Assembly: GCA_009377665.1 (NCBI GenBank)
Contig: WHTO01000002.1
Coordinates: 1 to 33,242 of the forward strand
DNA from: Dehalococcoidia bacterium
GTDB taxonomy: Bacteria > Chloroflexota > Dehalococcoidia > WHTO01
Direction of reading: 5' to 3'
Length of the DNA stretch: 33,242 nt
Shown here piece by piece: positions 6,984-29,373 of this stretch. The notes below the pieces were generated by a model that was not told the DNA's origin, searched no databases, and saw only the letters and a list, made by a program, of their open reading frames with translations. Both the position numbers and the translations under genes were made by a program. How positions within the stretch are numbered: position 1 is the first letter of the stretch; every line of letters starts with the position of its first letter.

Positions 6984-8602
6984 CGGACGGCGAGTTCGCG
7001 TTTCTTAACCGTGCTTACGTCCACCAGCACCTCGCTGTCGTCGCGTCGGCTCCTACCAGAGGGCACCTCCTTGATTGCTGCCAGGGTCTGCCTCAACCGG
7101 CCCAGGTGGGCCTGGCCTCTCGCCATTAAGAGTTCGCCCGTAACCCGTGAGGGCCGGATGCTCGCTGCTTCGTAGTTGACCGCGGTCGTCACGTGCTCGC
7201 GCCGTGTGTGCCGCGGTAGAAAGTTGTCGGCTCGCAGGGGCAACAGTTGCCGCGACTCCTGGAGCCAGTACACCGTCGTGCGCGTCGCGAGATAGCGGTC
7301 GGGCTCAGCGTCGGCCCTCTCCAGGACGGCCACCTCATCGCCGGGGATCGGCGTCCGCGCCGTCTTCAACCAGCCGCCGCTACGCTGCAGCAGACGCCAG
7401 CCGGCCATGAAGGCAGCCGCCATCCAGATGTATCCGCCCGCCACGTAGAAGTGCGAGAGGAGCAACGCGCGCGGCAGGCGGGCCTGGCCGTCCTTGATCA
7501 GCGCCCACGCCGCAAGCGGCACCGTGCCGAGCCCCAGCACGTACCACGCCATCCATCTGCTCGGGTCCGCGACCGGACGGGGCATCCAGTCGGGGGCGAC
7601 AGGCGCCAGGACGCCAAGCATGAACGCCGTGAATGCGAAGATCGAGAAAAGGCCCAGCGGCACGACCAGCGCCGGCGCCAGCAGATAGTTCAGGATGTCC
7701 AGCTTTCTGAGAAACGGCATCCGGGCGCCCAGGACGGCGGGTATGTGCCGCCAGCAGGAAAGATGGCCGTGATACCAGCGCGAGCGCTGACGCAGCAGCC
7801 GTCTGACGGAAGAGACCGCCTGCTGATGAACCTTCGTCGTGTTGCAGTAGTGGTTGGTCCAGCCGCGCGTGGCCAGGCGCAGTCCGACGTCCAGGTCCTC
7901 GGTCAGGCAAGCGGTCCAGGGCAGCCCGCCCAGCGAGGTCAGAGCCGAGAGGCGGACAAACTGGCCGTTGCCGCCCAGGCTCGCGCTGCCCAGGGCCTCG
8001 TGCGCCTGCGAGAAGACCCAGTTGAAGGTCGTGAACTCCAGCTGCTGCCAGAGGGTCACGAGGTTGTCTTTCTGGTTCATCATCCGTACGCCCACCTGGA
8101 CACCGGCTGTTTCGGAGCGGTCGAAGTAGGGGGCGACGGCGGTGAGGAAGTTCGGCTCGACTTCGCAGTCGGCGTCCATGACGACGACGACGATGTTGTC
8201 GAGGCCATATATCTCCGGCAGCTCTGAGGTCAGGATCGCGTGATAGGCGTGGTTGAGGACGGCGCCCTTGCCCTTGCGTGCGACCGGCGCCTTGCGCGTC
8301 GAAAGCCGCACCTTGTCCGAATTGAAGCGCTCCACCACCGACGCTGTGTCATCGTCTGAACCGTCGTCGACGACGAACAGCAAGTAGTTGTCCCCCGGCA
8401 GGGTCAACAGCCGCCTGATCGTATTGCCGATGACAAGCTCCTCGTTGAGGGCCGGGATGACCAGGACGAAGAAGTAGGGCGACGTGTCCTCCCGTTCGCG
8501 CGGCACGCGAGCGAACAGCGAGGCCGCGAACATCAGGTAGCCCCACGCGATCATGTAGATCGGCACGGCTGCCAGGATGGCGAAGGTCGCCTCGAAACTC
8601 AT
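6980..8602 (-). CDS. Processive GT2 glycosyltransferase (cellulose/PNAG-synthase-like)
   Basis: N-terminal TM; IPALNEE, DDGSDD, KGAVLN, DAD, TEDL, QRSRW; several C-terminal TMs. Confidence 0.9.
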   Translation of the reverse strand: MSFEATFAILAAVPIYMIAWGYLMFAASLFARVPREREDTSPYFFVLVIPALNEELVIGNTIRRLLTLPGDNYLLFVVDDGSDDDTASVVERFNSDKVRLSTRKAPVARKGKGAVLNHAYHAILTSELPEIYGLDNIVVVVMDADCEVEPNFLTAVAPYFDRSETAGVQVGVRMMNQKDNLVTLWQQLEFTTFNWVFSQAHEALGSASLGGNGQFVRLSALTSLGGLPWTACLTEDLDVGLRLATRGWTNHYCNTTKVHQQAVSSVRRLLRQRSRWYHGHLSCWRHIPAVLGARMPFLRKLDILNYLLAPALVVPLGLFSIFAFTAFMLGVLAPVAPDWMPRPVADPSRWMAWYVLGLGTVPLAAWALIKDGQARLPRALLLSHFYVAGGYIWMAAAFMAGWRLLQRSGGWLKTARTPIPGDEVAVLERADAEPDRYLATRTTVYWLQESRQLLPLRADNFLPRHTRREHVTTAVNYEAASIRPSRVTGELLMARGQAHLGRLRQTLAAIKEVPSGRSRRDDSEVLVDVSTVKKRELAVR

Positions 8603-10114: not shown

Positions 10115-11248
10115 ATGCCCCGGGGGTGGCCTGCTCTGCTTAGCAATCGACTGTTTGCCGTTCTGATAGTCGGCATCCTTGCCCTTGGCGTGATCGCCCT
10201 GGCGCAGCCCGCGACCCCGGTCTCGACGACCACCGCCGAGCCCTCCGAGGCGTCATCACAGGCCGCGTTGCGGCCAAGAATGATCAGAGGAATCAACCTC
10301 AACGTCTTCTCGCGCGGTTACCTCGGGTTTGACCGCAGCCATGCCCAGCTCGACGCCATGAAGGCCGCGGGCGTCACCTGGGTCGCCGTCGTGCCCAACT
10401 GGTACATGCCGACGAAGGAGTCCAACCAAATCCGCCGGCATCACGACACCCCGACGGACGCCTCGCTGCGTACCTTCATCCGCGAAGCGCACGAGCGCGG
10501 GATCAGGGTGCTCCTCAAGCCGCACGTCGATGTAGAGACGGGCGACTGGCGCGGCGAAATAACCCCGGCCAACGATGCAGCCTGGTTCAACAACTACAAG
10601 CGGATGATCACGGGCTACGCGCGCCTCGCCCAGCAGGAGGGCGTCGAGGCCCTGGTGATCGGCGTCGAATTCAACACCATGCAGGACCGCACGCTGCGCT
10701 GGCGCCAGGTAATCTCGGCCGTCCGCCGCGCGTACGACGGGCAGATCACCTACGCCGCGAACTGGAACGGCTACGACGGCGTCCAGTTCTGGGACGACCT
10801 CGATTGGATCGGCATCGACGCTTACTTTCCGCTCGCCGGTGGAAACCGCAATCCAAGGGTGGCCGGCATGACGCAGCGTCTACGCGGCCACCTCGATGCC
10901 GTGGAGGACTGGCGAACCCAGCAGGGACACCCCGTGTCCCGCAAGCCGGTCGTCATCACCGAGGTTGGCTACACCAGCGTCGACGGCGGCAGCCAGTCGC
11001 CTTCGCACTATCCCGACTCATGCGCCGAGCCGGGCGTCGTCGTCGACATGAACGAGCAGCGCGACGCCTACACCGCCCTCTTCCGCGCCATCAGCGAACG
11101 TCCGTGGCTGGCTGGCGTCTTCCTCTGGTGGTGGGACAACCCATCGACCAGCGACCACTACCCGCACGGCGATGACTGGGAGTGCTTCTACACGCCCCGC
11201 GGCAAGCCCGCGATGCGCGTCATCATTAACGCCTACCGCCGCCCCTGA
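10115..11248 (+). CDS. Secreted GH113-like glycoside hydrolase (beta-mannanase family)
   Basis: Signal/TM segment; VLLKPHVD, WRGEI, IGVEF (acid/base), ITYAANW, FWDDLDWIGIDAYFPL, ITEVGY (nucleophile). Confidence 0.8.
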   Translation: MPRGWPALLSNRLFAVLIVGILALGVIALAQPATPVSTTTAEPSEASSQAALRPRMIRGINLNVFSRGYLGFDRSHAQLDAMKAAGVTWVAVVPNWYMPTKESNQIRRHHDTPTDASLRTFIREAHERGIRVLLKPHVDVETGDWRGEITPANDAAWFNNYKRMITGYARLAQQEGVEALVIGVEFNTMQDRTLRWRQVISAVRRAYDGQITYAANWNGYDGVQFWDDLDWIGIDAYFPLAGGNRNPRVAGMTQRLRGHLDAVEDWRTQQGHPVSRKPVVITEVGYTSVDGGSQSPSHYPDSCAEPGVVVDMNEQRDAYTALFRAISERPWLAGVFLWWWDNPSTSDHYPHGDDWECFYTPRGKPAMRVIINAYRRP

Positions 11249-16059: not shown

Positions 16060-18273
16060 CCCGCTCCAGTGGGGCGAACGAGACCAGGAGCCGCTTGACG
16101 CCGGGCTCGCCCTTGAAGGCCACCGTTACCTCACGATCGCTGCCGCGGTCTGCGGTAGCGACGATTATGCCTTCGCCGAACTTGGCGTGGCGCACCCTGT
16201 CGCCGGCGCGATAGTCCGCGTCTACGGCTGAATCGTCCCCGCCGGCAACGCGCCGCCGTTCGACCTGGGCATGGACTCGTGAGCGAGCACGGAGGTCCGG
16301 CTCCGTGATCTCGCGCCGGCGGAAATCCACGAGGTGGGCGGGATGTCTTTCCAGTAGCGCGATGGCGGGTTGGCCGAGCTCATGCCGTGGCGGACCCGGC
16401 GGACGGCCCGCAGCAGAAACAGGTGCTCCCGGGCGCGCGTCAGCCCGACGTAGCAGAGCCTCCGCTCTTCCTCCATCTGAGCCGTGCTGTCGAAGGATCG
16501 AATGTGCGGCAGGATACCCTCTTCGAGGCCGACCATGAACACGTTGGCGTACTCGAGGCCCTTCGCCGCGTGCAGGGTAATCAGGGTCACGGCGTCGCTG
16601 CGGTTATCGATGGTGTCCGCGTCCGAGACGAGGGCGATCTCCTCGAGGAACGACCCCAGCGCCGCATCGGGCGTCAGCTCCGCGTACTGGGCCGCGACGT
16701 TCTTAAGCTCCTCCACGTTGTCCCATCGCTCGTCGCTGTCGTCGAAGGAGCTCTGCAGGTGGCGGCGATAGTCAGTCGCCCGGCTGATTTCCTCGATTAA
16801 CTCGTAAGTGCTGACGGCAGCCCCCCGTTCGATCAGGCGGTTCAGGAGGTCGAGGAACCCGAGCAGCGCCGCCAGCGACCTCGATGCGAACGACGGTGGG
16901 CTGTCGACGCTGACCTCGCCCTCGCGCCAGTCGCGCAGCAGCTGCAACCCCGTGTAGGCAGGCACACCGAGGCCGCGCGACCAGCGCTGAAGCTCCTCGA
17001 TCGACCGATCACCAATCCCGCGGGCGGGCAGATTGATCACGCGCAGCAGGCTGACGCTGTCGAATGGGTTATGGACGAGACGCAGGTAGGCGAGGATGTC
17101 CTTGACCTCGCGGCGCTCGTAGAAACGGGTGCCCCCGACCAGCCGGTACGGTATGCGGGGGCGTGCCTCGACCAGGGCTTCCTCCATCGCGCGTGACTGG
17201 GCGTTGGTCCGGTACATCACCGCGAAGTCGTTGAATCCGTACCCCTTCTCTCGCTGCAGGCGGCGAATCTCCCGGATCACGAAGGCGGCTTCCTCCCCGC
17301 CGTCGTAGGCTTCGAAGCCTACGACCGGGCTGCCCTGGCCCCGGTTCGTGTTCATGCGCGTGGTTCGTCTGCGGCCCGGATGCTCCGAGATCACGGCGTG
17401 GGCAACGTCGAGGATCGTCTGCGTCGAACGATAGTTTTCCTCCAGCAGGACAACCTGGCAGTCCGGAAAGTCCCGCTCGAAGTTGGTGATGTTGCGAATG
17501 TCCGCCGACCGCCATGAGTAGATCGACTGGTCGGGGTCGCCGACGACGCAGATGTTCCCGTGCACCGACGCGACCTGCCTGGCCAGCGTGTACTGGGCAA
17601 GGTTCGTGTCCTGGAACTCGTCGATCAGCACATGGAGATAGCGATCGGCGTACCTCTGGCGCACGTCAGGTAGCTCTCGGAAGAGGTTCACCGTCTGGCC
17701 CAGGAGGTCGTCGAAGTCCAGGGCGTGCGCTTCGGCGAGTGCCGCTTCGTAACCGCGGTAGGCGCGCGCCACGACCTCATCGAAGTAGTTGCCGCTGCGC
17801 TTCGCGAACCCGGAGGCGTCGATCAGCTCGTTCTTCGCGCGCGAGATGACCGACAGCACCGAGCGGGGCGAGAACTGGCGGGGCTCGATGTTGTTCGCCT
17901 CCAGCACGGCCTTGATCAGCCGTATCTGGTCGTCGTCGTCGTAGATCGTGAAGCTGCGGTCGATGCCGAGCTTGTCGCCGTCGCGTCGCAGGAAGCGCGC
18001 GCAGACCGAGTGGAAGGTCCCGATGGTGATGTCGCCCACCGTATCCCCGAGGAGACCCTCAACGCGGTCGCGCATCTCGCGCGATGCCTTGTTGGTGAAG
18101 GTCACCGCCAGCACGCGGTAGGGCGGCACGCCGCCCTCCAGGACCAGGTTGGCGATGCGGTGGGCGATCACCCGCGTCTTGCCGCTGCCCGGTCCGGCCA
18201 GGATCAGCATTGGGCCGTCCAGCGTCTCCACGGCGCGGCGTTGTGCGGGGTTCAGTGCGGCGAGGATATCCAT
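16052..18273 (-). CDS. pcrA: PcrA/UvrD SF1 helicase with a 1-nt frameshift near 16336 separating the C-terminal Tudor-like domain
   Basis: AGPGSGKT, TFTNKA, DEFQDTN, VGDPDQSIY, YRTNAQSR, TLHAAKGLEY, EEERRLCYVGLTRA. The C-terminal GDRVRHAKFGEG...KRLL lies in another frame (16052-16330). Confidence 0.92.
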
Positions 18274-18286
18274 GGGGGGCGTCGCC

Positions 18287-18311
18287 ATTCTACCATCGGG
18301 TTGGCGTCAAT
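18287..18311 (-). promoter_or_regulatory. pcrA promoter: ATTGACGC-N11-TAGAAT (extended -10 TGnTAGAAT)
   Basis: Seen directly. Back-to-back with a plus-strand TATACT (18319-18324) for the divergent gene. Confidence 0.55.
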
Positions 18312-18966: not shown

Positions 18967-19803
18967 TCAGCGCAGCAGGGCTTCCGGGTCGATGTGGGCC
19001 ATGATGCTCGCCGCCCGTTCAACCTGCTTCAGGCTGCGCGGCGGGCCGGGGGCAAAGGTGGTCTCGATGCGCTGGACCGTCGGGAAGGTCGTCTCCCGCG
19101 TGATTGCCAGCGGTGTGGAAGCGGCCGCCGCTCGCTCCGCGACGTAGCCGAGCGGCTCGTCGCCTCCGGTGATAACCAGGAGCGTGGTATTGCCGGCGAG
19201 AGCCGACAGCGCGAGCTCGGGCTTGTCGTCGCGGCAGACGACGACGGCGTGGTCGGCGCCTCCGAAGTAAAGGCGGCCCGTGTCGTGCGCGATGGGAGCG
19301 ATCAGGAGGTCCTCACAGAGAGCCTCCTGCTTCCCGTCAATGAACCGCACCGTCGTCTCCGCCGGCAGAGCCGCCAGCACCCGGCTGACCGTCGGCGCCA
19401 TCAGCAACCTGTCGCCGCGGAAACCGGAAACGTCGATCTCCCCGGCGAACCGCTCGGGAGCGATCGGGAGATGGGCCGCCGCACTCCCCGCCACGACGAC
19501 GACCGCGTCGAGCTTCTCGACCGTCTCGCCGATGGCATCATCGGCGGGCACATCCGCCACGATGACGGCCGAGCCCAGGTCGCCCAGCATGGATGCCGCC
19601 TGCGAAAGGCCCAAAGGATTGACGCCAATGCCGTACGGCAATCCGCCGTAGAAAGCGGCGGTTCGCGCCGTTCCCGGGTCGTTCGCGGAGCCCATCGTCA
19701 GCAGCAACGCCTCCCTGCCCACGAGGTGTAAGCGGTGGGCGATGGCTGCCGCGAGCGTCGTGCGCTCGATGTCGGGCCCGGTAACAACAATCGAACGGGG
19801 CAT
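18967..19803 (-). CDS. Stand-alone DRTGG-domain protein (Pta N-terminal-like), degenerate
   Basis: AVVVCRDDKPELALSAL...LLVITGG...YVAERA...TTFPTVQRIE pattern; degenerate P-loop at the N-terminus. Confidence 0.7.
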   Translation of the reverse strand: MPRSIVVTGPDIERTTLAAAIAHRLHLVGREALLLTMGSANDPGTARTAAFYGGLPYGIGVNPLGLSQAASMLGDLGSAVIVADVPADDAIGETVEKLDAVVVVAGSAAAHLPIAPERFAGEIDVSGFRGDRLLMAPTVSRVLAALPAETTVRFIDGKQEALCEDLLIAPIAHDTGRLYFGGADHAVVVCRDDKPELALSALAGNTTLLVITGGDEPLGYVAERAAAASTPLAITRETTFPTVQRIETTFAPGPPRSLKQVERAASIMAHIDPEALLR

Positions 19804-19882
19804 CGACTGGAATTATATCCGGCGTTCTCGGGGAGGGCAGGCAGGTTCTTCCTGCCGGAGCCGTTTGCTAGGCTTGTCGGGT

Positions 19883-19958
19883 GCCGAGGTAGCTCAGTCG
19901 GTAGAGCACGCGGCTGAAAACTGCGGTGTCGGCAGTTCGATTCTGCCCCTCGGCACCA
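19883..19958 (+). tRNA. tRNA-Phe(GAA)
   Basis: GCCGAGGTAGCTCAGTCGGTAGAGCA CGCGG-CTGAAAA-CTGCG GTGTCGGCAGTTCGATTCTGCCCCTCGGCACCA. Confidence 0.97.
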
Positions 19959-19968
19959 CTTCCCTTCT

Positions 19969-20688
19969 TCAGCCCTCAGCCGCCCGCCGCTCTCCGGCGG
20001 GCGCAGGCGCCCGCTGGGCACGGCGGTCGAGGACGTATCCGAAGCCGCGTACCGTCCTGATCGCTGGTGATACCAGCCCGACTTCCTGCAGCTTATTACG
20101 CAGGCGGCTGATCAGGACCTTCACCGGCTCGCGCGACACCTCGTCGGGAAGGGCGACGCCCTGCATCGCGTAGTACAGGTCGGGGTGGGATACTACCCGT
20201 CCCGGGTTCGCGGCGAGGTGCGCGAGCACCTTGAATTCACCAGGCGTCAGCCGAAGCTGCTGATTTGCGGCCGTCGCTTCTCTCCGCGTCACATCCAGCT
20301 CCAGTGAGCCCACTTTGATCTGGTCGGCCTCCTGTGGGCGCGACCGGCGCAGCAGCGCGCGCAACTGCGCGGTGACGTGCGCGGGTCGGGCGCCGGCGGC
20401 AATGTGGACGTCGGCGCCCTCCTCGAGGGCGGCTATCGCCGGGCCCACCCCGTCGCCGCCGCAGGCGAGGACAATCGCGTCGGGGCTGGTACTACGGAAA
20501 CGCTGGATCACCTCGAGGCCGCGCTCCGTGTCGCTGGACAGGTCCACGACGAGAACGCGCAGGCCTTTGAGGGAATCCCCTTCGGGCTGCTGGACCTCGC
20601 GGAGGCGCAGCTGCAAAGGCTCAAGCGCTCTCTCCAGGACCTTTCGGGTTTCGTCGCCGACGGCAAAGACCGCCGCTTCCCCAACCAT
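19969..20688 (-). CDS. OmpR/PhoB-family response regulator with atypical receiver domain
   Basis: Winged-helix LTPGEFKVL...ISRLRNKL...IRTVRGFGY. The receiver keeps VVDL but lacks the conserved Thr/Ser and Lys-Pro. ATG at 20688 preferred over GTG at 20727. Confidence 0.85.
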   Translation of the reverse strand: MVGEAAVFAVGDETRKVLERALEPLQLRLREVQQPEGDSLKGLRVLVVDLSSDTERGLEVIQRFRSTSPDAIVLACGGDGVGPAIAALEEGADVHIAAGARPAHVTAQLRALLRRSRPQEADQIKVGSLELDVTRREATAANQQLRLTPGEFKVLAHLAANPGRVVSHPDLYYAMQGVALPDEVSREPVKVLISRLRNKLQEVGLVSPAIRTVRGFGYVLDRRAQRAPAPAGERRAAEG

Positions 20689-20751
20689 TACCTGCAAGTA
20701 TGGTGTCAGTTTTTGACTTCTCGCCACTAGAGCCGCGTCACGAGCGCGCGC

Positions 20752-23700
20752 TCAGCTCCCTGGTTCAACGGCGAGCGCCTGCCCCGGAGCCCGTGTGAGC
20801 AACTCTCTTCCGCCGTCGGCCAGGCCAGGTCCTGCCAGCGAAACGCCGACCCCAGGACGCGCAAAGTGGAAGAGGAACTCGGCGATTGGCAGGCCTGTCA
20901 CCTGTTCGCAGGCCAGCGCGTAGACCATCGCCTGCGGCGCGTAGCGCTGGGCTCGCGCCTCAGTATCGGCGGCAGCGACGTTGTCTGACTTGACGTCGAC
21001 GAGGACCAGTCCGGCGTCCTCGCGAAAGAGGAGGTCCATCGCGCCTTCGACGAGGCCGCCGTCGAACGGAAAGGCAAACGGCACCTCACGCCACACCTGC
21101 GCCGAGCGCAGCGCCCTCTCCATCAAGGGGGAACGCAGCGTCGAGCGCAGCATCGCCGAGAGCTCCGGCCGGCGATCCTCGACCTCGTAGTCCGCGGCCA
21201 CGGCCTCAACCAGGGCGTCGAGCCCCCGGTCGTCCCAGTGGCGCAGGTCTACCCGCTCCAACGCCGCGTGAAGCGCGCTGCCGAGGCGAATCGCCGACGA
21301 CGCCGGGGTCCGCGACAGGGGTTCGGCCCCGCCGTCGAACCTGACAAGGCTGGTTGCCGTCCAGATGGAGCGATGGGGCATGGCCGTTAGCAGCTCCGCG
21401 CGCCGCTGCTCCCAGGCGGCCCTTCCGGCCACGAGCCGCGCCGCCGCGTCCGCGTCGCTGGGTATCGGAGCCACGGCCGGCGGCTGGACTTGCTGGAGCC
21501 CGGATCTGTCGATGCCCGGCACGTCGTCGAGTCCCTTCCCCAGGTACCCGAGCCAGCAGCGCTCTACCTTCCCGCTGCGGAAGGCGCCGACCACCAGGTG
21601 GTCGCGGGCCCGGGTAGCCGCCACGTAGAGTTGCCTGACGCGCTCGGCATCGTCGCGCGCCTCCTCGTGCGGGGCGATCTCCGCGAACCGCGGCGTCGCG
21701 AACTCGGCTTTTCCCGAACTCCCCCGCCGCACGTGCAGCTCCTTGCCGACACGATCGGCGTACTCGCGGCTCGGGTTGTTGAGCGACCCTCCCAGGTTGG
21801 CAAGGATCACGATGGGAAACTCCAGGCCCTTCGCCGCGTGAATCGTATACAGGTTCACCTCCGTACCGGGGCTGTTGGGCACGTGCGCCGGGGCGTCGCC
21901 CTCGCGCGCGGCGCCGTCCCGGTTGGTTCGCAGCCAGCGCGTGAACCGATGCAGCGTCGCCGCGGTTTGCGCCTCGTACTGGCGCGACATCTGCGCGAGT
22001 TTTCGCAGGTTGGCCACGGCCTGCCTGCCCTGCCGGCGCAGCGTGTGCAGCTCGGTCAACCGCGATTCGCGCAGCGCCTCCTCCACCAGCGCCGACAGGC
22101 GCATGTCGTTACGCACCTGGTGCAGTCGCGCCAGGACCCGGTAGGCGTCCGTGATCGACGTGGGTGCTTCGGCGGGGGTGACGGCGGTGTAGTCGAAGGA
22201 GCCGCCCGCCACGCGGTGCGCCAGCAGATCCTCGTCGCTGACGCCGAAGACGTGCCGCAGAGTGGCTGCGACCGTGATCGAGTCCAGGGGGTTGTCGATG
22301 GCCAGGAGGAGCGCGATCGCGTCCTTTATCTCCTGGCGAACGTAGAAGAACGACCCACCCTCGTGACGATAGGTCAGTCCCTGGTCCCTGAAGACGGCCT
22401 CGTAGATGTGGAGCCCGGTCCGAGTCGGCATCAGGATCGCGATGTCGCTCGCCCGCGCCGGCCTGGTCTCCCGGTCGTCGGGGTCCTGCACCTGCCAGTT
22501 GCCTACGATCTTCTGCTGGATCAAAGCGGCGATGTGCTCCGCTTCCTGGCGCCTCATGCCATCGGCCCTCTCCTCCTTGTCGGGCGTGGTTGTGGGACGA
22601 AGCGCGGTCACCCCATCACCCTCGCCCCCGAGGGCAATGTCGCGGGTCTCGGAAGCAATGAGCGGAATGTAGTCGGCCTGCACCCCGGGCGCGCCGGTCA
22701 TCTGGGCTGCAAACGTCCCGTTCGCCCAGTCCACGATCCCTGGGCGGCAGCGAAAGTTCTGGCTGATCAGCAGCCGCCTGCCGCCGCGCTCGATTATCTG
22801 CCGCGCGTTCTCGTAAATGGCGATGTCCGCCCGGCGGAACCGATAGATGGACTGCTTGGGATCGCCGACTACGAACAGCTTGTCCGTCGCCAGCTCGACC
22901 TCGGTCCAGTCCGCCGCCGGCGTGCTTCCCTCTCGCTCGGCCAGGAAGAAGACGATCTCGACCTGCAGCGGGTCCGTATCCTGGAACTCGTCGACCAGGA
23001 TGTGCTTGAACCGCCGCTGAAAGTACCGCCGCACCTCGACACGCTCCTTCAGCAGCCGGCGCGCGAGCACGAGCAGGTCGTCGAAGTCCAGCTTCCCGGA
23101 ATCCCGGCGTCGTTTCTCGTACCAGGAAGGAAAGCCCTCCAACCACTGCATGAGCAGGACGAGGGCACCCGAGCAAAGTTCATTGCGGACGCGGTCGCGG
23201 GCCACCGTCAGCTCGCCGAAGACCTCCTTCTGGCGGGCGCAGTAGTCGGCTTCCCATTTCAGCTTGTTGCCCTTGTTTTTGAGGACGTCGCGATGGCCCG
23301 CGACTATGCGTTGCGCCTGCTCCCTGTCCGCCATCTGCAATCGCAGCAGGTAATCGGCGGCCTCGTCGATCTGGCGATAACCGAGGTCGCCGTGGTCGCG
23401 GCAGTGCGCCTGCATCTCCTGGAGCCGTGCCACGCCACCCGCCAGCTCCTGCCTGTAGGCATCAATGTCGGGCCGCGGCACGGGGGAATGGTTCAGTGGC
23501 AGCAGGTCACGCTGTTCGTTGATTCTCGCCGCCAGGTTCTTGATCCCGGAGAAGGGAAAGCCGAGCAGCAGCGCCCGCTCGACGGCCGTCGAGTCAGCCT
23601 CGAGCGCCGTCGCGAACCACTCCTCCCACGCCGCCTCGAAGTCCACCTTCATCGCCAGCTCGTCGAGGAGTTCGAACCGCGGGTCGATGCGCGCCTCGAC

Positions 23701-24084
23701 GGGTCTTTCCCTGAGTAGCGACTGGGCGAAGGCGTGGATCGTCTCAACGTGGGCGCGGTCGAGGTCGACCAGCGCCTCCTCGACCCGGCGCCGCTCGTCC
23801 TCGCTCCCTCCAGCGGCGAGCGCCTCCTCTAACCGGGCGCGGATGCGCACCCGCAACTCGGCAGCAGCAGCCTCCGTGAACGTTATGGCGACAATCTCGG
23901 TGATCCTGGCCTCGCCGCGGCTGACGATTGCCACCACCCGGTCGACCATCAGGCTCGTCTTACCGGTCCCGGCGGCCGCCTCGACGCAGACCGGCGTCGA
24001 GAACTCTCCGATGGCCAGGTCGCGCTCGCGCTGGTCCGCGGGCCTGCCCGGCTCAGGCCAGAGGCTCGACTGGAGGGCGCTCAA
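20752..24084 (-). CDS. addA: AddA-like UvrD-type helicase with C-terminal PD-(D/E)XK nuclease
   Basis: AAAGTGKT, ITFTEAAA, DEFQDT, VGDPKQSIYRFRRAD, TIHAAKGLEF, YVAATRARD; nuclease EGAMDLL...VDVKS...QAMVY. TTG start overlaps the upstream stop. Confidence 0.85.
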   Translation of the reverse strand: MSALQSSLWPEPGRPADQRERDLAIGEFSTPVCVEAAAGTGKTSLMVDRVVAIVSRGEARITEIVAITFTEAAAAELRVRIRARLEEALAAGGSEDERRRVEEALVDLDRAHVETIHAFAQSLLRERPVEARIDPRFELLDELAMKVDFEAAWEEWFATALEADSTAVERALLLGFPFSGIKNLAARINEQRDLLPLNHSPVPRPDIDAYRQELAGGVARLQEMQAHCRDHGDLGYRQIDEAADYLLRLQMADREQAQRIVAGHRDVLKNKGNKLKWEADYCARQKEVFGELTVARDRVRNELCSGALVLLMQWLEGFPSWYEKRRRDSGKLDFDDLLVLARRLLKERVEVRRYFQRRFKHILVDEFQDTDPLQVEIVFFLAEREGSTPAADWTEVELATDKLFVVGDPKQSIYRFRRADIAIYENARQIIERGGRRLLISQNFRCRPGIVDWANGTFAAQMTGAPGVQADYIPLIASETRDIALGGEGDGVTALRPTTTPDKEERADGMRRQEAEHIAALIQQKIVGNWQVQDPDDRETRPARASDIAILMPTRTGLHIYEAVFRDQGLTYRHEGGSFFYVRQEIKDAIALLLAIDNPLDSITVAATLRHVFGVSDEDLLAHRVAGGSFDYTAVTPAEAPTSITDAYRVLARLHQVRNDMRLSALVEEALRESRLTELHTLRRQGRQAVANLRKLAQMSRQYEAQTAATLHRFTRWLRTNRDGAAREGDAPAHVPNSPGTEVNLYTIHAAKGLEFPIVILANLGGSLNNPSREYADRVGKELHVRRGSSGKAEFATPRFAEIAPHEEARDDAERVRQLYVAATRARDHLVVGAFRSGKVERCWLGYLGKGLDDVPGIDRSGLQQVQPPAVAPIPSDADAAARLVAGRAAWEQRRAELLTAMPHRSIWTATSLVRFDGGAEPLSRTPASSAIRLGSALHAALERVDLRHWDDRGLDALVEAVAADYEVEDRRPELSAMLRSTLRSPLMERALRSAQVWREVPFAFPFDGGLVEGAMDLLFREDAGLVLVDVKSDNVAAADTEARAQRYAPQAMVYALACEQVTGLPIAEFLFHFARPGVGVSLAGPGLADGGRELLTRAPGQALAVEPGS

Positions 24085-27000
24085 TCGATGCCTCTCATCT
24101 CGTCGATTGCCAGCCGCCCCGACCCCGCGCTCTTGCGCTCCTCGTCGGTAGCCACGCTGACGGCGCAAGCGTGCTTGAAATCGCAGAACTGGCAGTTATC
24201 GCCGCGCTTGTTTCGCGGTGTCCCTGTTCGAGGCACGAAGACCCCGCTCCTGGCCGACCGTGCGAGAAGGTCTATGATCCGGTCGAAGTCGTGCCTGCGG
24301 GCGCCCAGCGAAGCGCCCGAAAGCGTCACCACATTGGTCTTGGCCTCGCGATTGATGTGGCGATAGCTGGCGTCGACATCCTCCTCCGAGATGCCGAGCG
24401 CGTTCGCGGTCGCTATCAGGTAGACGGGGAGCTGCACCTGGCGGCCGCCCTCGAACGAGGCGTCTGGGCCTTTCGTTGTGGCTGTCGTGCGCCCCGACTT
24501 GTAATCGATTACACGGGCGGCGTCGGGGCTGCGGTCGATGCGGTCGATTCGACCCTGGATTCGAAAGATGACCCCTTCCTCCGTCTCAAGCAGCAACGGA
24601 TCCTGCCGCGAGCCAAAGGGATACTCCAGCGCATATGGGACGAAACGCTCCCCCGCGTCCGCCAGCTCCTCCTCCAGGAATCGCTCCAGGTCCTCCAGCA
24701 AGATCCTCTGGTTCGCCTTCCAACCGACGAACACGCCCGTCACGCCCTGCCTCTCGGCCGCCTCGAACTCGATGCGCGCCGCTTCGTGCAGCAGGTCCCC
24801 ATACTCGGCGCGGCGGTCGCGATCGAGCGGGAGCATCTTCAGTTCGATGAGGTTCTCGAAGAACCGCTGCAGGATGGCGTGGACGATGTTGCCTCGGTCC
24901 AGCGGAGAGAGCTCGGTGATCAGCTCCGGATCGTCGATCTCCTCAAGGCCCAGCAGGTGGCGCATGAAGAAGCGCTGGGGGCAGGTGGCGTAAGCTTCCA
25001 GAGCGGACGCTGACAACACCGCCCGGTCGAAGTGACTGGTGAGCGCTGGCACAACCGACGAGCCGGCAAGATTGCCGTCGTAGACCGTCAGCGCCGCGCT
25101 GGCGCGCGCCGCGTATCCCGCCTTCATGCGCCCGAAATGGGCGCTGACCTGTGATAGGTAGGCGACCGCGTCCTGGCGCGGCGCCGTGCGGGCGACCCGG
25201 ATGTCGTACTCGGCGACCGTCAACGCGTCGTCGTCAGGCACCAGCGGGTCCGGCTCACCCGGGGGTATCCCGCCGCTCTCCAGGCCAACTGACGACCGCT
25301 TGAGCGCCAGGTAGAACGCCGACGGATGCCGCGTCCGCGGCTTGTTCTCATCGAAGAGCGGGTAAGAGGCATAGAGCCTGCCGGCAGAACCAACAAGGTT
25401 GGAGAACAGCAGCCTCTCCTCCTCCAGGCCCAGCGCGGCGCGCGGGAGCCAGCGCTCCGTCGGCCTTGCCGACAATCGAGCGCGCTCGCCCTCGAGCAGC
25501 AGCGAGTCCTGGCGCTGCGGCGCCGGGAAGCTGCGCTCGGCCAGGCCGATGACGAACACGTGCTCGAACGCCGCCCCGCGCATGCTCCTGGGCTGCCCGA
25601 CAAAGATGTGGCCTCCCCCGAGGTGGCCGCGCTGGACGGCGAGGTCCTCGAGATACAGCCGCACCGTCTCGCTGAAGCGTTCAAACGCCAGCGGCGAGGC
25701 AATCGCGTCCAGGCGAGCCACGTGCTCCAGCGCCCGCTGGCAGGCCTCGTAACCATCGGCATGATCGAGGTAGCGGTCGGCCACCGCGATGACAGCCGCC
25801 ACGTGTTCGCTGTAGGTGCGGTCGTCGGCGAGCACGCCCAGGTCGCCGACGAAACGTTCGATGAAGGCTCGCAGCCTGCTTGCGTCTTCCACCTGGCGCT
25901 CCAGGGCTTCGCGGGAACTCTCATCAGCCCGCTCGAGCCGCCGCTTCACCTGCCGCTCGTATGCCTCTAGCCGCTCCTGCCACTGCTCCTGGCCGGCGAT
26001 GATGGCGGCGCGGCGCGTCAGCCACTCCCAGGTCTCGGGGCGGCCGCCCGCCAGCGATTCCAACGTCAACGGCGCATAGGTCGCGAACTCGACGATGTCG
26101 CTGCGCCTCAGGCCGGAGGCAACCAGCCCCAGCATCAAGAGCAGCGAGCGGCCCCAGCGCGTTTCCGCCGCCCGATCGCCATCGGCCTGGAAGAAACGCA
26201 GGCCGGCGGTCGAGAGCGCCTCGCCCAGCAGGCGCCCGTAGGGGTCCGCGCTGCGATAGACGATGGCAATGTCGTCGCAGCTGACGCCATCGCGAAGCAG
26301 CCCCAGCACACGACGGACCACGTGTTGGACCTCGCCGATTTCGTCGGGCGCCTCCACCAGCTCGATCGGTGCACCCGCCACCGGGTTGCGGGGCTCAACG
26401 AACAGCGACGCCGCGACCGTCTCCAGGGGCGTGCTGCCGCCGGCGAGCGCGTCGCGTTCGAAGCCATGACGGGCGAGCGACCCCAGCACGTGGGCGTTGT
26501 ACGATGAGCGACCGCACGCCTCGTCGGCCAACAGCGCCGTGACGTCCAACGTCGTCGCCAGCCGCGCCAGGGCCCCGGCCTGGAGCTCGGTGAAGTCGTG
26601 AAAGCCGTAGGCCACCATCCTGTCCGAGCCCAACCGGTCGGCCGCCTGCTCCGCCGAGTCGAGGGCGTTGCGAAACAGCTGCCGCACCGTCTGGTGGACC
26701 GCCTCGATCCGCTGTCCGGCCGCCTCGGCGACGGTGGCCAGGCTGAGGATGCGCTCGGCATCATATGGGCCGGCGGCATCCGTCCGGCGCACTCGCTCCG
26801 CAAGCGCCCGGAGGTCATCCGCGCTGACACCCGCGTTGGCAAGGTCGTCGATAACAGCCAGGAGCGCGCTGTGCAGGCCGGCATGGTCTGCCACTGCCTC
26901 GAAGTACCCTGGATGCTCCGCCAGCGTTTCCCTGATCGCCGCGAGCCACTCCAGCTCACCGGCCAGCGGACCGCTGCCGCCCATGGCCGTCAACTTGCGC

Positions 27001-27206
27001 AGCAACTCGACGAACGTCAGCAGGCGGACGTTGACGACCCCCTCGGACGCCAGCGCCAGCCGCCGCTGCAGGAGCAGGGCGACGAGGTAGCTGGGCACCA
27101 CGATGTTGACGGGGCCAAGCGGGTCAACAGCCCGCTGGCCGGCGATCTCCCGCTTCAACCAGTCGTCCAGCGCCGCGCGCGGGCCCGTGATGACGCGAGC
27201 GCTCAA
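24081..27206 (-). CDS. addB: AddB-like inactive-helicase / Fe-S PD-(D/E)XK nuclease subunit
   Basis: LSASALEAYATCP, GRIDRID, VIDYKSG, QLPVY, CQFCDFKHAC (four Fe-S Cys). No intact Walker A. Confidence 0.82.
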   Translation of the reverse strand: MSARVITGPRAALDDWLKREIAGQRAVDPLGPVNIVVPSYLVALLLQRRLALASEGVVNVRLLTFVELLRKLTAMGGSGPLAGELEWLAAIRETLAEHPGYFEAVADHAGLHSALLAVIDDLANAGVSADDLRALAERVRRTDAAGPYDAERILSLATVAEAAGQRIEAVHQTVRQLFRNALDSAEQAADRLGSDRMVAYGFHDFTELQAGALARLATTLDVTALLADEACGRSSYNAHVLGSLARHGFERDALAGGSTPLETVAASLFVEPRNPVAGAPIELVEAPDEIGEVQHVVRRVLGLLRDGVSCDDIAIVYRSADPYGRLLGEALSTAGLRFFQADGDRAAETRWGRSLLLMLGLVASGLRRSDIVEFATYAPLTLESLAGGRPETWEWLTRRAAIIAGQEQWQERLEAYERQVKRRLERADESSREALERQVEDASRLRAFIERFVGDLGVLADDRTYSEHVAAVIAVADRYLDHADGYEACQRALEHVARLDAIASPLAFERFSETVRLYLEDLAVQRGHLGGGHIFVGQPRSMRGAAFEHVFVIGLAERSFPAPQRQDSLLLEGERARLSARPTERWLPRAALGLEEERLLFSNLVGSAGRLYASYPLFDENKPRTRHPSAFYLALKRSSVGLESGGIPPGEPDPLVPDDDALTVAEYDIRVARTAPRQDAVAYLSQVSAHFGRMKAGYAARASAALTVYDGNLAGSSVVPALTSHFDRAVLSASALEAYATCPQRFFMRHLLGLEEIDDPELITELSPLDRGNIVHAILQRFFENLIELKMLPLDRDRRAEYGDLLHEAARIEFEAAERQGVTGVFVGWKANQRILLEDLERFLEEELADAGERFVPYALEYPFGSRQDPLLLETEEGVIFRIQGRIDRIDRSPDAARVIDYKSGRTTATTKGPDASFEGGRQVQLPVYLIATANALGISEEDVDASYRHINREAKTNVVTLSGASLGARRHDFDRIIDLLARSARSGVFVPRTGTPRNKRGDNCQFCDFKHACAVSVATDEERKSAGSGRLAIDEMRGID

Positions 27207-28162
27207 CTGTACATGCTCAGCGCCCGCCCGGCGTCGGCGGCAAACTGGTCTCGCAGCTCAGCCGGCATCAGCACCTCTACCTCTGGCCCCCAGCTCCGGA
27301 TCCACGAAGCCACCTCCACCGTGTCGCTCACCGTCAACCTGACGAGGTACGAGCCGTCGGGCTGCCTCTCGATCACCTGGCTGGGGTGCCACTGCGCCTC
27401 GAGCAGGCGCTCGGCCACGGCACGCGAGAAGCGCAGGATCACGTCCTTCTTCTCGCCGCCGATCCAGACGCCCCAGGCCGGGCCCAGGACCGATTCGATG
27501 CTGAAGTCGTCGGGCATCTCGAACGAGTAGGCGAGGAGCCGGGCCTCGTGCGCGCGCTCGATCTTGAAGACCCTGATCGACTTGTGCGTGTGCGAGAACC
27601 CGATCACATACGTCGAGAAGCCCGTCCCCGGCTCGATGAAATAAGGCTCCAAATCGACCTGCGACTCGTTGCCCCGCGCCGACCGATACGAGAAGCTCAC
27701 GCGGCGCGCCCGCGCCCAACCCTGCGTTAACACCCGCATGGTCTCCGAGAATGCCGGATTTGCCGCCCTGTCCGCAAGCGTCGTCACCGCCTCGGCGACC
27801 CTCCGCGCCATCGGCGCCGGCAGGATCTCGCCCAGCTTGCTCAGGCTCGTCAGCACGTCGGGGTCCTGTTCGTCCGTGTAGCGGGTGTACAGGCGCAGGG
27901 CCAGGTAGAGCGCCCGCGCCTCATCAACCGAGAGTCCGAGGGGCGCCAGGCGGGCGCTGCGGTCGACGCTGTAGCGGCCACCCTGGGCCAGCACCGGCAC
28001 GCCGAGCTCCGACTCGAGCACCGCCAGGTCGCGCTGGATCGTGCGCTGCCCGACGCCCAGCATCCTCGCCAGTTCGCTCGTCGAATAGCCACGAGGCGAA
28101 CGGTACAGTATTTCGTTGAGCCTTTGCAGGCGGGCGGCGCGGCGCGCAGGTTCGGCAACCAT
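27203..28162 (-). CDS. HTH-WYL-WCX transcriptional regulator (DriD/PafC/YafY-like)
   Basis: HTH ELARMLGVGQRTIQRDL; WYL domain FSYRS...LEPY...TYVIG...IRVFKIER; WCX WHPSQ...WIRSWGPEVEVLMPAELR. SD GAGGAG before ATG at 28162. Confidence 0.93.
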   Translation of the reverse strand: MVAEPARRAARLQRLNEILYRSPRGYSTSELARMLGVGQRTIQRDLAVLESELGVPVLAQGGRYSVDRSARLAPLGLSVDEARALYLALRLYTRYTDEQDPDVLTSLSKLGEILPAPMARRVAEAVTTLADRAANPAFSETMRVLTQGWARARRVSFSYRSARGNESQVDLEPYFIEPGTGFSTYVIGFSHTHKSIRVFKIERAHEARLLAYSFEMPDDFSIESVLGPAWGVWIGGEKKDVILRFSRAVAERLLEAQWHPSQVIERQPDGSYLVRLTVSDTVEVASWIRSWGPEVEVLMPAELRDQFAADAGRALSMYS

Positions 28163-28196
28163 CGAGTACTCCTCAGCTTTTCCCGTCAGTGATGCC

Positions 28197-28230
28197 ATGA
28201 TGCCTGAACCGCGCGTCAATTACTGTCGCG
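28197..28230 (-). promoter_or_regulatory. Candidate WYL operator/promoter: CGCGACA-N5-TGACGCG pseudo-palindrome overlapping TGACGC-N10-CATCAT
   Basis: Inverted repeat with one mismatch at 28212-28230; -10-like CATCAT at 28202-28197. Confidence 0.6.
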
Positions 28231-28359
28231 TGCCGCAGAGTGCGCGACACTTCTATAGTTGTCCGGACATTCACGGGGTTCGCTCGATGCGACACCGTGC
28301 TCAACGCAGCCAGGCCGGCCGGCGGGCAGCCCGACCCCCGCGCTCGCTAGGATGCAAGC

Positions 28360-29373
28360 GTGGCGTCCGTCTTAAAAGACCTGCTCGGGAGACCGCTGCG
28401 CGACCTGCGCATCTCGGTCACCGACCGCTGCAACTTCCGTTGCACCTATTGCATGCCGAAGGAGGTCTTCGGCAAGGAGTTCCAGTTCCTGCCGCGCGCC
28501 GGCCTCCTGACCTTTGAGGAGATCACCAGGCTGTCGCGCATCTTCATCAGCCAGGGCGTGAGGAAGCTGCGCATCACCGGCGGCGAGCCACTCCTGCGCC
28601 GCGACCTGCCGCGCCTGGTCGCCCAGCTCAGGGCCATCGACAAGGGCGTCGACCTGACCCTGACGACCAACGGCTCGCTCCTCAAGGAGCAGGCCCACGA
28701 CCTCAAGGCCGCCGGCCTGAGCCGCATCACGGTCAGCCTGGACTCCCTCGATGACGCCGTTTTCAGGGCCATGAACGACGTTGATTTTCCCGTGACCCGG
28801 GTGCTCGACGGCATCGAGGCGGCGAGGGCAGCGGGCCTCGTGCCGATCAAGATCAACACCGTCGTCAAGCGCGGCGTCAACGACGACCATGTGGTGGACC
28901 TCGCCCGCCACTTCCGCGGCACGGGGTTCACCGTCCGCTTCATCGAGTACATGGATGTCGGCAGCACAAACGGCTGGCGCCTCGACGATGTCGTGCCGGC
29001 CGCAGAAGTGATCCAGAGGATCAGCGCCGAGATGCCCCTTGAGCCCCTCGATTCCCAGTACCGGGGCGAGGTAGCCGAGCGCTGGCGCTATCGCGACGGC
29101 GGCGGCGAGGTCGGTGTCATCGCCTCCGTCACCCAGCCCTTCTGCCAGGACTGCACGCGCGCCCGCCTGTCGGCCGATGGCGCCCTCTACACCTGCCTCT
29201 TTGCGACGACCGGGCAGGACCTCCGCTCGCTGCTGCGCAATGGCGCCACCGACGACGATATCGTCGCGACCCTTGCCACGATCTGGGGCCGTCGCGACGA
29301 CCGCTACTCCGAGATCCGCTCCGAGGAGACTGCAGGGGCCGCCAGGGTAGAGATGTCCCGCATCGGCGGCTGA
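28360..29373 (+). CDS. moaA: GTP 3',8-cyclase MoaA
   Basis: [34 protein letters not shown]...TCLF, C-terminal GG. Confidence 0.97.

Follow-up and report, generated by a model that had tools for sequence, protein, structure and literature searches.

What is a WYL-domain regulator doing in one run of overlapping genes with a DNA-end resection enzyme, and which genes does it answer for? The question is raised by a stretch of 33,242 nucleotides (nt) of contig WHTO01000002.1 from a Dehalococcoidia bacterium of the phylum Chloroflexota (assembly GCA_009377665.1), called the window here, in which a gene for a helix-turn-helix (HTH)-WYL-WCX protein (wyl) is followed by addB-like and addA-like genes. 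An earlier reading made from the letters alone (the sequence-only reading) had taken the locus for a candidate SOS-independent module for break repair or against mobile genetic elements, induced by single-stranded DNA (ssDNA). The answer that we consider probable is that the WYL protein is a homodimeric activator of the DriD/PafBC class, which acts on the palindrome GCGACA-N5-TGTCGC and raises a small repair regulon including its own operon. All the evidence is computational and comes from sequence analysis of metagenome-assembled genomes (MAGs), namely the source genome (G000; 2.96 Mb, 269 contigs, 86% complete), two relatives of the same family, G401 (91% complete) and G402 (72% complete), and wider samples of the phylum. 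Beyond the window, open reading frames (ORFs) are longest-ORF calls, and the crude ORF map of the source genome is 91% coding.

The class of the regulator is clear from three kinds of comparison. Pfam finds HTH_11 (4.9e-7; 30 bits, cut-off 25), WYL PF13280 (1.6e-11; 44.5 bits, cut-off 21.8) and WCX PF25583 (6.1e-19; 68.6 bits, cut-off 23.9), and three-helix plus wing elements are present at residues 4-66 of an AlphaFold 2 (AF2) model built on 21 homologues, with a predicted local distance difference test score (pLDDT) of 85.8. Among solved chains, phmmer aligns the protein over its full length to DriD (8tp8/9pfq, about 3e-14), then to PafC (7.5e-8) and fused PafBC (1.6e-5), and returns no BrxR or CapW match at E <= 0.01. 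With Foldseek, the model matches DriD 8tp8 (1.7e-17), PafBC 9fnd (1.7e-14), BrxR (1.4e-8) and CapW (2e-7), with a probability of 1.0 but template modelling (TM) scores of just 0.42-0.49 for DriD and PafBC, as expected of a multi-domain protein with mobile domains. The assignment made in the sequence-only reading, an HTH-WYL-WCX protein of the type of DriD and PafBC, is thus borne out. Passages of the DriD report name seven residues in contact with ssDNA (PMC9186387); in the phmmer alignment Y168, Y192, R204 and W206 of DriD correspond to Y, Y, R and F of the WYL protein, whose Y185, R197 and F199 show conservation of at least 90% across the 21 homologues. No second WYL gene was found in the source genome with PF13280, and G401 and G402 likewise have one each. 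The protein also matches positions 5-316 of the PADLOC model PDLC01766, 'Cas3c' (E 3.1e-74), while positions 326-1001 match the genome's own Cas3, and the WYL module therefore occurs also as a fusion to a type I-C Cas3.

One layout of half-sites, A, B and C, precedes the WYL gene in each of the three family genomes and reads TGTCGCS-N12/13-SGCGACA-N5-TGTCGC. The productive unit within it is the 17-bp palindrome GCGACA-N5-TGTCGC (the box), with the consensus GGCGACAGnWnCTGTCGCC. The source genome holds six exact copies of it versus 1, 0, 2, 2 and 0 for spacers of 3, 4, 6, 7 and 8 nt, and four of the six are intergenic versus none of five for the other spacers. Exact copies number eight in G401 and six in G402, versus none in either for the reversed pattern, and five in G372, a genome of a different family. 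Other definitions of the site were set aside. The pair of half-sites A and B (TGTCGC-N12..16-GCGACA) has four matches in the genome versus about 2.4 expected from hexamer frequency and gives no regulon signal; clusters of at least three half-sites within 75 nt number nine in the genome, two of them intergenic, and served only as a lead to contig C265 (see below); a lone half-site, TGTCGC-N10-TANNNT, has eight matches genome-wide (four intergenic) versus 1-9 at other spacers, too weak without the palindrome; and the two-mismatch sites of the source genome (65 near gene starts) are mostly chance by the spacer controls.

The distance between the box and a -10-like hexamer is fixed at many sites. 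In a set of 22 sites (the 20 exact copies plus the own promoters of the source genome and G401; 44 orientations), NANNNT stands exactly 10 nt after TGTCGC in 14 orientations, whereas other offsets from 2 to 30 give 0-5 each; the stricter TANNNT is found at N10 in 4 of 40 orientations, with 0 at offsets 2-20 otherwise. By consensus reading, no -35-like hexamer lies 17 +/- 1 nt upstream of the hexamers, and at several box promoters an ATG stands 6 nt past the hexamer, which suggests that their mRNAs are leaderless. The PafBC motif of mycobacteria is given in passages of PMC8635444 as tGTCgg(N10)tA(N3)T, with the upstream element at -28 to -23 and no -35, and TGTCGC-N10-hexamer has the same geometry. 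A 'sigma adaptation' promoter of the PafBC type, that is, a GTC element 10 nt upstream of the -10 without a -35, is accordingly seen at 13 of the 22 sites. The pattern also reaches distant relatives of the regulator: at 8 of 20 loci of distant homologues the box (1-3 mismatches), N10 and a perfect TANNNT stand directly upstream of the WYL gene, and all eight (L027, L028, L030, L032, L061, L062, L063 and L066) are from Chloroflexota, either drawn from the samples of the phylum and class or so titled. No box precedes the WYL gene at any of the six loci titled as other phyla or 'uncultured bacterium', and in G372 an exact box with TAACGT precedes the WYL ORF.

The genes behind the box point to a predicted damage regulon, given its place upstream of ligD-PrimPol, lhr and rmuC. 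Apart from wyl-addB-addA, whose promoter is boxed in 3/3 family genomes, the operon of a small ORF, rmuC and ligD (PrimPol) is boxed in all three as well, and in the source genome it runs into lhr. There, on contig C265, an exact box, N10, TAAAGT and a leaderless ATG open an operon with a 48-amino-acid (aa) ORF, an RmuC-family gene, a LigD PrimPol (4.8e-85) and an Lhr-type helicase running off the contig end. In G402 an exact box with TAGTCT precedes orthologues of the small ORF and of LigD PrimPol, and G401 has two one-mismatch boxes with GAAGAT ahead of small ORF, rmuC and ligD (in the relatives 38 of the 56 called ORFs, those flanking sites, were run on Pfam). Type I-C cas3 is boxed in both of the family genomes that have it, with a one-mismatch box and N10 GAAGGT ahead of cas3c-cas5c-cas8c in the source genome and a one-mismatch box and GATCGT in G401; G402, at 72% completeness, yielded no cas3. 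The source genome further has an ADP-ribosylglycohydrolase gene (PF03747, 5e-72) behind a one-mismatch box, TACGTT and a leaderless ATG, and a trypsin-like peptidase gene is boxed both there and in G402. Sites seen in a single genome are those of uvrB and recA in G401 (for recA, a one-mismatch box upstream of a LexA-type promoter) and of thyX/MBL, DUF5131/MFS, yjeF and a glyoxalase gene in the source genome, and a one-mismatch box at dnaG has no N10 hexamer. Outside the family, addB of G372 has an exact box with N10 TAGCAT 55 nt upstream, one of only two sites with at most one mismatch that 853 kb of addB loci contain, and the WYL gene of that genome lies 550 kb away.

Some details of these targets can be recorded here. 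The small ORF, 48-49 aa in the three family genomes, begins MDKIVALRPMPNGFE..., MKGKIVALRPLPAGFE... and MKAKLIALRPLLNGFE..., respectively, and starts 6 nt past the box-dependent -10 hexamer (C265 3729-3875 on the minus strand, L040; L051 1540-1689, plus; L133 from about 3483, plus). It has no Pfam match and is not hydrophobic, and it may be a damage-induced small protein. The ADP-ribosylglycohydrolase gene occupies 5886-6995 (plus) of contig C27 (L134 1387-2496), where the longest-ORF map shows an overlapping ORF on the opposite strand. In G372 the WYL homologue (L136 3497-5779, plus) has HTH and WYL domains and no WCX match, and it continues in frame into an AMP_N plus Peptidase_M24 aminopeptidase; the resulting frame of 760 aa is either a true fusion or an artefact of assembly or frame. 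A DPP-IV/S9 peptidase gene comes next with a 4-nt overlap, and a DPP-IV gene likewise neighbours the WYL gene of G228, which belongs to the same family as G372.

The features of the locus itself are listed in Table 1. The window has 64-71% G+C, and the three genes correspond to minus-strand ORFs listed as 27203..28219 (338 aa), 24081..27206 (1041 aa) and 20752..24168 (1138 aa).

Table 1. Features of the wyl-addB-addA locus, in window positions.
Feature	Position	Strand	Remarks
Extra upstream half-site TGTCGC	28290..28295	-	direct repeat GCGACAC on the plus strand
Half-site A, TGTCGC	28244..28249	-	inverted repeat TGTCGCG-N12-CGCGACA with half-site B
WYL box GCGACA-gtaat-TGaCGC (half-sites B and C)	28213..28229	-	one mismatch to GCGACA-N5-TGTCGC; exact or one-mismatch copies at the orthologous promoters of G401 and G402
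-10-like hexamer CATCAT	28197..28202	-	exactly 10 nt past the box; weak, not TANNNT
Ribosome-binding site GAGGAG ahead of ATG 28162	28169..28174	-	orthologues have GGAGG at the same place
HTH-WYL-WCX transcription factor, 319 aa	27203..28162	-	sole WYL gene found in the source genome
TTGA stop/start overlap wyl/addB	27203..27206	-	sequence reading; TGA stop plus possible TTG start
AddB-like subunit, 1041 aa	24081..27206	-	C-terminal PD-(D/E)XK nuclease, IDYKSG at 24509-24492
TTGA stop/start overlap addB/addA	24081..24084	-	sequence reading; TGA stop plus possible TTG start
AddA-like subunit, 1110 aa from TTG 24084	20752..24084	-	UvrD-type superfamily 1 (SF1) helicase plus C-terminal PD-(D/E)XK nuclease

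The WYL gene most likely starts at the ATG and not at the TTG at 28219 that opens its ORF, because the ribosome-binding site stands ahead of the ATG, the TTG falls inside the operator and both orthologues start at the aligned position behind GGAGG. For addA an alternative start is possible upstream, since the ORF extends to a TTG at 24168; the alignment of its orthologues begins no earlier than residue 43-45 of that ORF, in keeping with the start within the overlap. The junctions read ...TAC AGT TGA GCG CTC... (wyl/addB) and ...ATC GAT TGA GCG CCC... (addB/addA), so that the two 4-nt overlaps described in the sequence-only reading, and the TTGAGCGC with which both downstream frames open, are there as claimed. 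In the relatives the junction overlaps are 11 nt and GTGA (G401) and 8 nt and ATGA (G402). The overlap of stop and start is thus a real feature, conserved in 3/3 family genomes. The octamer TTGAGCGC is kept neither in G401 nor in G402, was rejected as a signal and is probably a coincidence in DNA of 67% G+C. Between the extra upstream half-site and a TATAGA hexamer, in the wyl-moaA intergenic region, lies a perfect 10-nt palindrome, TGTCCGGACA (28259-28268), for which regulation of moaA or another factor is possible.

That the addB-like and addA-like genes encode a real AddB/AddA pair, as had been supposed, is confirmed by domains, motifs and solved relatives. The addB product has a PDDEXK_1 domain (3.2e-39), and that of addA has UvrD-helicase (5.8e-56), UvrD_C (7.6e-22) and PDDEXK_1 (2.9e-13); the Walker A motif of AddA, AAAGTGKTS, is encoded at 23979-23953 and its nuclease motif, VDVKSD, at 21000-20983. 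In AddB four cysteines, C742 (24983-24981) and C1005-x2-C1008-x5-C1014 (24194-24165), bracket the nuclease, a C...CxxCx5C pattern which we take to be the iron-sulfur staple signature; its N-terminus has no Walker A, with VITGPRAA at the position expected for one. The best solved relatives are those of Bacillus subtilis, AddA 3u44_A (8.4e-51) and AddB (2.5e-8). In NCBIfam the two proteins come nearest to addA_Gpos and addB_Gpos, with scores far under the cut-offs (addA_Gpos 283.5 bits versus 707.65, addB_Gpos 83.8 versus 903.7; also addA_alphas 210.9 versus 860.75), and both are divergent members that fall outside those curated equivalogs. When the source genome is searched, the AddA query finds itself and PcrA only, with no RecB, and the AddB query finds itself only, while G401 and G402 have one AddA each. 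The search for a second addAB or recBCD that the sequence-only reading had proposed thus came back empty in the source genome with these queries, and the AddAB described here appears to be the only one in the genome, a housekeeping enzyme.

How widely is the arrangement shared? Among the 41 relatives examined, close orthologues of the regulator occur only in G401 and G402, and in both tblastn recovers the order WYL-addB-addA, with 69-75% identity for WYL, 41-43% for AddB and 50-53% for AddA. These figures also indicate, as an observation apart, a resection enzyme that evolves fast here, unusually so. The flanks differ in the two relatives, the Trans_reg_C, DRTGG and moaA genes of the window not being found beside the unit, and the three genes have therefore moved together as one unit. 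In G402 (L026, about 6160-6350) two tRNA-like genes were spotted by eye directly upstream of the unit, with a gene for a LonC-like protease beyond.

Away from the family the picture changes. None of eight loci of distant WYL homologues (36-44% identity) has addAB nearby within the DNA fetched. Around ten WYL loci there are 106 ORFs, of which 54 were run on Pfam (the WYL flanks, without the WYL, addB and addA ORFs); what stands beside the distant WYL genes is a cas6-cas3-cas8b...cas5 operon (G407), a cas3 cluster (G417), a PDDEXK_1 nuclease with an AAA ATPase and RNase_H_2 (G114), AbiEii with MazF (G025), a radical-SAM/HHH protein (G044) and, in the remainder, metabolic or unknown genes. A wider scan of genome contigs gave 13 loci, two with the three-gene unit and with statistics identical to those of the G401 and G402 loci, and no addAB near the other 11. 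Among 401 sampled genomes of the phylum, an AddB match is present in 51 (E <= 1e-10; one of them, G227, unpublished) and a WYL homologue in 238 (E <= 1e-5; four unpublished, G038, G173, G272 and G227). The 50 other addB loci examined come from 49 genomes, with G227 left out and two loci from G348. An AddA-like match (>80 bits) follows addB in 40 of them, and a WYL homologue lies within about 8 kb in just one, G224, and not upstream. That gene (L083 15747-16745, minus) encodes the complete HTH-WYL-WCX architecture, stands 2.1 kb past addA in convergent orientation and has no upstream box at <= 3 mismatches. The gene-neighbourhood survey that had been suggested therefore gives a divided result: the order is kept, overlaps included, in 3/3 family genomes, and it is found at 0/8 and 0/11 distant WYL loci, with a single partial case among the 50 addB loci. 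Such narrow synteny confines the operon form to one family-level lineage.

The neighbourhood of the unit in the window is a housekeeping one. The moaA gene is divergent from the WYL gene, with rpsB-tsf-pyrH-frr-uppS to the right, and to the left, all on the minus strand after addA, come a response-regulator-like Trans_reg_C gene (19969-20727), a DRTGG protein gene (18967-19803) and pcrA/uvrD (16222-18288). The response-regulator-like protein, with a degenerate receiver and Trans_reg_C, begins 24 nt past the addA stop and may be co-transcribed with addA; in G401 a UvrD-like helicase gene lies about 5 kb downstream of addA, and the other downstream genes of the window were not found there. The PADLOC matches of AddB and AddA amount to generic UvrD and Cas4-like similarity and include no defence system, and the WYL gene does not have the placement of BrxR or CapW genes, directly upstream of a recognised defence system.

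These data bear on the proposal that the locus is an accessory module against phages or plasmids, in which a defence-type WYL regulator would guard a nuclease-helicase effector that is not the repair enzyme of the cell. WYL homologues at 39-44% identity do front type I cas operons (G407, G417) or an AbiEii/MazF island (G025), and within the family AddB and AddA are far less conserved than the regulator. Nevertheless, there is a single AddA and AddB in the source genome and a single AddA in each relative, the AddA query found no RecB, the neighbours are those just described, PADLOC sees only generic similarity and the addB-addA pair is common in the phylum, and we find the proposal hardly credible. 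The label of a module against mobile elements is therefore withdrawn; the link to defence that does appear to be present is another one, the same box upstream of type I-C cas3. Independence from the SOS response is likewise not supported, since LexA_DNA_bind is found in 3/3 family genomes and RecA in two of them (the source genome and G401), and a LexA-like palindrome, GGAACAAGTGTTCC, stands in the G401 promoter. In that promoter (L025, about 10691-10706) the perfect palindrome TGGAACAAGTGTTCCA, of the GAAC-N4-GTTC type (Cheo/LexA-like), immediately precedes TAGAAT and lies upstream of the WYL boxes; the wyl promoter of the source genome is without such a box, and in G401 LexA and the WYL factor may both control the operon. 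A similar observation was made on contig C111 of the source genome (L041 3370-8000), where GTACAAGTGTTC lies about 50 nt further upstream of the cas3 box and resembles the LexA-type boxes before recA and lexA in that genome.

The mechanism that we favour can be put together from these elements. We infer that this protein binds this box, doing so as a homodimer on the palindrome, which would lie at roughly -39 to -23 and place TGTCGC at the position of the '-26 element' of PafBC; as an activator, the protein would stand in for recognition of a -35. Binding of ssDNA at the WYL domain would switch it on, and the active protein would raise transcription of its own wyl-addB-addA operon, read as one transcript, along with the operon of small ORF, rmuC, ligD (PrimPol) and lhr, the ADP-ribosylglycohydrolase gene and the type I-C cas3 operon. 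The wyl-addB-addA promoter carries the conserved operator, and the protein therefore likely regulates its own gene along with addB and addA. Since AddAB, the only RecBCD-class resection enzyme of the genome, would itself make ssDNA, the arrangement would give positive feedback after double-strand breaks. Of the feed-forward loop in the sequence-only reading, the joint encoding of sensor and ssDNA-making enzyme stands, with overlaps in 3/3 genomes and the operator in the promoter, while its sign, activation by the ssDNA that AddAB makes, is what we presume. The earlier interpretation named the right kind of system, a resection enzyme co-expressed with a WYL sensor of the ssDNA type, and the sensor now looks like a factor that serves a whole regulon through a defined box.

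The sign of regulation is where the main competitor enters. The same protein on the same box could be a repressor of the CapW/BrxR type, blocking RNA polymerase until ssDNA releases it, and derepression would leave the operon damage-inducible all the same. Several observations speak for it and thereby weigh against activation. A palindrome over the -35 region (about -39 to -23) is also what a repressor would use; half-site A and the extra upstream half-site flank the promoter in the source genome, and the A-B-C layout is kept in three genomes. A better -10-like hexamer, TATAGA, stands directly upstream of half-site A in the source genome, and if this were the promoter the boxes would fall at about +1 to +45, which suggests repression. 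CapW is described by its authors as a winged-HTH (wHTH)-WYL-WCX repressor sensing ssDNA, and DriD, in passages of PMC9186387, is proposed to autorepress from a similar position. Also against the activator reading, the -10 hexamers of wyl-addB-addA are poor throughout the family (CATCAT, CAAACT and GAGCCT), its box in the source genome carries one mismatch, a sigma-70 consensus promoter scan of 19800-28500 found none (its terminator-like matches all lie inside genes), the excess of sites at <= 1 mismatch over the reversed control is modest (28/15, 47/26, 24/17 and 18/14), the uvrB and recA boxes of G401 were dropped as conserved targets for want of a counterpart in the source genome, and in the pairwise alignment only four of the seven ssDNA-contact residues of DriD meet a like residue, S172, R178 and K202 having none. 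What tells against repression is the exact N10, at 13/22 sites and in 8/8 boxed distant WYL promoters, which is typical of a factor that contacts polymerase, together with the missing -35-like hexamer 17 +/- 1 nt upstream and a sequence and fold that resemble the activators DriD and PafBC more closely than BrxR and CapW. We consider repression unlikely on balance, and activation remains our preferred reading.

A different kind of explanation would make the WYL protein mainly a partner of AddAB, an ssDNA-binding accessory subunit held at a fixed ratio by translational coupling, with control of transcription secondary. It would account for the start/stop overlaps at both junctions in three genomes, and fusions of WYL with helicase and nuclease do exist, as the two halves of PDLC01766 indicate (WYL 5-316, Cas3 326-1001), while several homologues in the phylum sit in open frames of 1096-1274 aa. 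Against it, the N-terminal HTH, the conserved operator at the own promoter and the operator copies at unlinked genes speak for a DNA-binding regulator, and in G372 the box precedes addB with the WYL gene 550 kb away. We therefore judge it very improbable.

Taken to its full extent, the activator reading would amount to PafBC-style promoter reprogramming outside Actinobacteria by a homodimeric WYL protein on a palindrome, with an ssDNA-triggered regulon of AddAB, a module of the non-homologous end joining (NHEJ) type (LigD PrimPol, Lhr, RmuC) and type I-C cas3, in which AddAB amplifies its own sensor; as a whole this remains a tentative and somewhat doubtful proposal. The sequence-only reading had been aware of no such circuit characterised in Chloroflexota. 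Its logic is not new, as passages of PMC8682763 have mycobacterial PafBC required for basal and induced adnA expression; what would be new is the fusion into one operon, the PafBC geometry with a homodimer on a palindrome in Chloroflexota, the apparent inclusion of type I-C cas3 and the conserved small ORF. Going by titles and the beginnings of abstracts, none of the papers found on the WYL domain and AddAB describes a WYL-addBA operon, and a search on WYL, Chloroflexi and DNA damage turned up no paper about such a regulator from Chloroflexota. A second arm of the bacterial damage response, independent of LexA, is coming into view in the WYL regulators that read ssDNA, with characterised examples from Actinobacteria, Caulobacter and Acinetobacter. 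For Chloroflexota, with few genetic tools, the analysis offers a candidate regulator, a 17-bp operator, a promoter rule (box-N10-TANNNT) and a predicted target list. It also hints at a greater age or wider spread of the PafBC promoter geometry than has been assumed, and a single sensor over both break repair and CRISPR-Cas would bear on the way in which CRISPR systems are supplied with resection products. Should regulation prove positive in sign, the operon would be a compact natural case of a signal-producing enzyme co-expressed with its own sensor.

Compared with known systems, the locus borrows from several. With CapW and BrxR (CBASS, BREX and other defence systems) it shares a wHTH-WYL-WCX protein encoded directly upstream of the operon that it would control; those are repressors beside defence systems, with weaker similarity in fold (E 1e-8 to 3e-6) and in sequence. 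AddA has the UvrD-like motor and RecB-type nuclease, and AddB the nuclease with the Cys4 pattern, of Bacillus subtilis AddAB (3U44, 4CEH), although the pair in the window is very divergent and its AddB has no N-terminal Walker A; the addB-addA gene order is as in other Chloroflexota. The type I-C WYL-Cas3 fusions (PDLC01766) resemble it in that the WYL protein aligns to their N-terminal 316 positions and the boxed cas3 of the source genome to the rest, whereas here the WYL module is separate, encoded with AddAB and on a contig other than that of cas3. SiwR of Mycobacterium smegmatis, as passages of PMC10693628 describe it, is a homodimeric WYL activator that uses an imperfect palindrome between -35 and -10 and regulates neighbouring genes on genotoxic stress; it differs in its targets, DinB-superfamily genes, and in a divergent arrangement instead of one operon.

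DriD of Caulobacter crescentus is the closest solved structure by sequence and fold. According to passages of PMC9186387 it forms a homodimer, has a palindromic site, binds to the promoter of its own gene and governs a small DNA-metabolism regulon (recA, dnaG, recJ, bapE), with ssDNA as its effector and AddAB named by the authors as the likely ssDNA source. In contrast, its 20-bp site lies just upstream of normal -35/-10 promoters, whereas the box described here replaces the -35 region; DriD contacts the alpha C-terminal domain (alpha-CTD) and beta (PMC13004042), driD is unlinked to addAB, and the identity in structural alignment is about 23-26%. PafBC, the LexA-independent damage activator of Mycobacterium and other Actinobacteria, is a heterodimer or fusion of two WYL proteins of which only PafB contacts DNA, at a non-palindromic site, with the second HTH on sigma region 4, and it is not encoded in the adnAB operon; the family studied here belongs to another phylum, with one WYL gene per genome and a 17-bp palindrome in place of two WYL proteins. 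The likeness lies in the WYL and WCX domains, in the ssDNA ligand (presumed here; for PafBC, passages of PMC8635444, PMC8682763 and PMC11804915), in an identical spacing, tGTCgg(N10)tA(N3)T versus TGTCGC-N10-(T/N)ANNNT, and in the targets, which in both cases include lhr and an end-resection enzyme, addBA here and adnAB in mycobacteria, where passages of PMC8682763 call adnAB and lhr PafBC-dependent.

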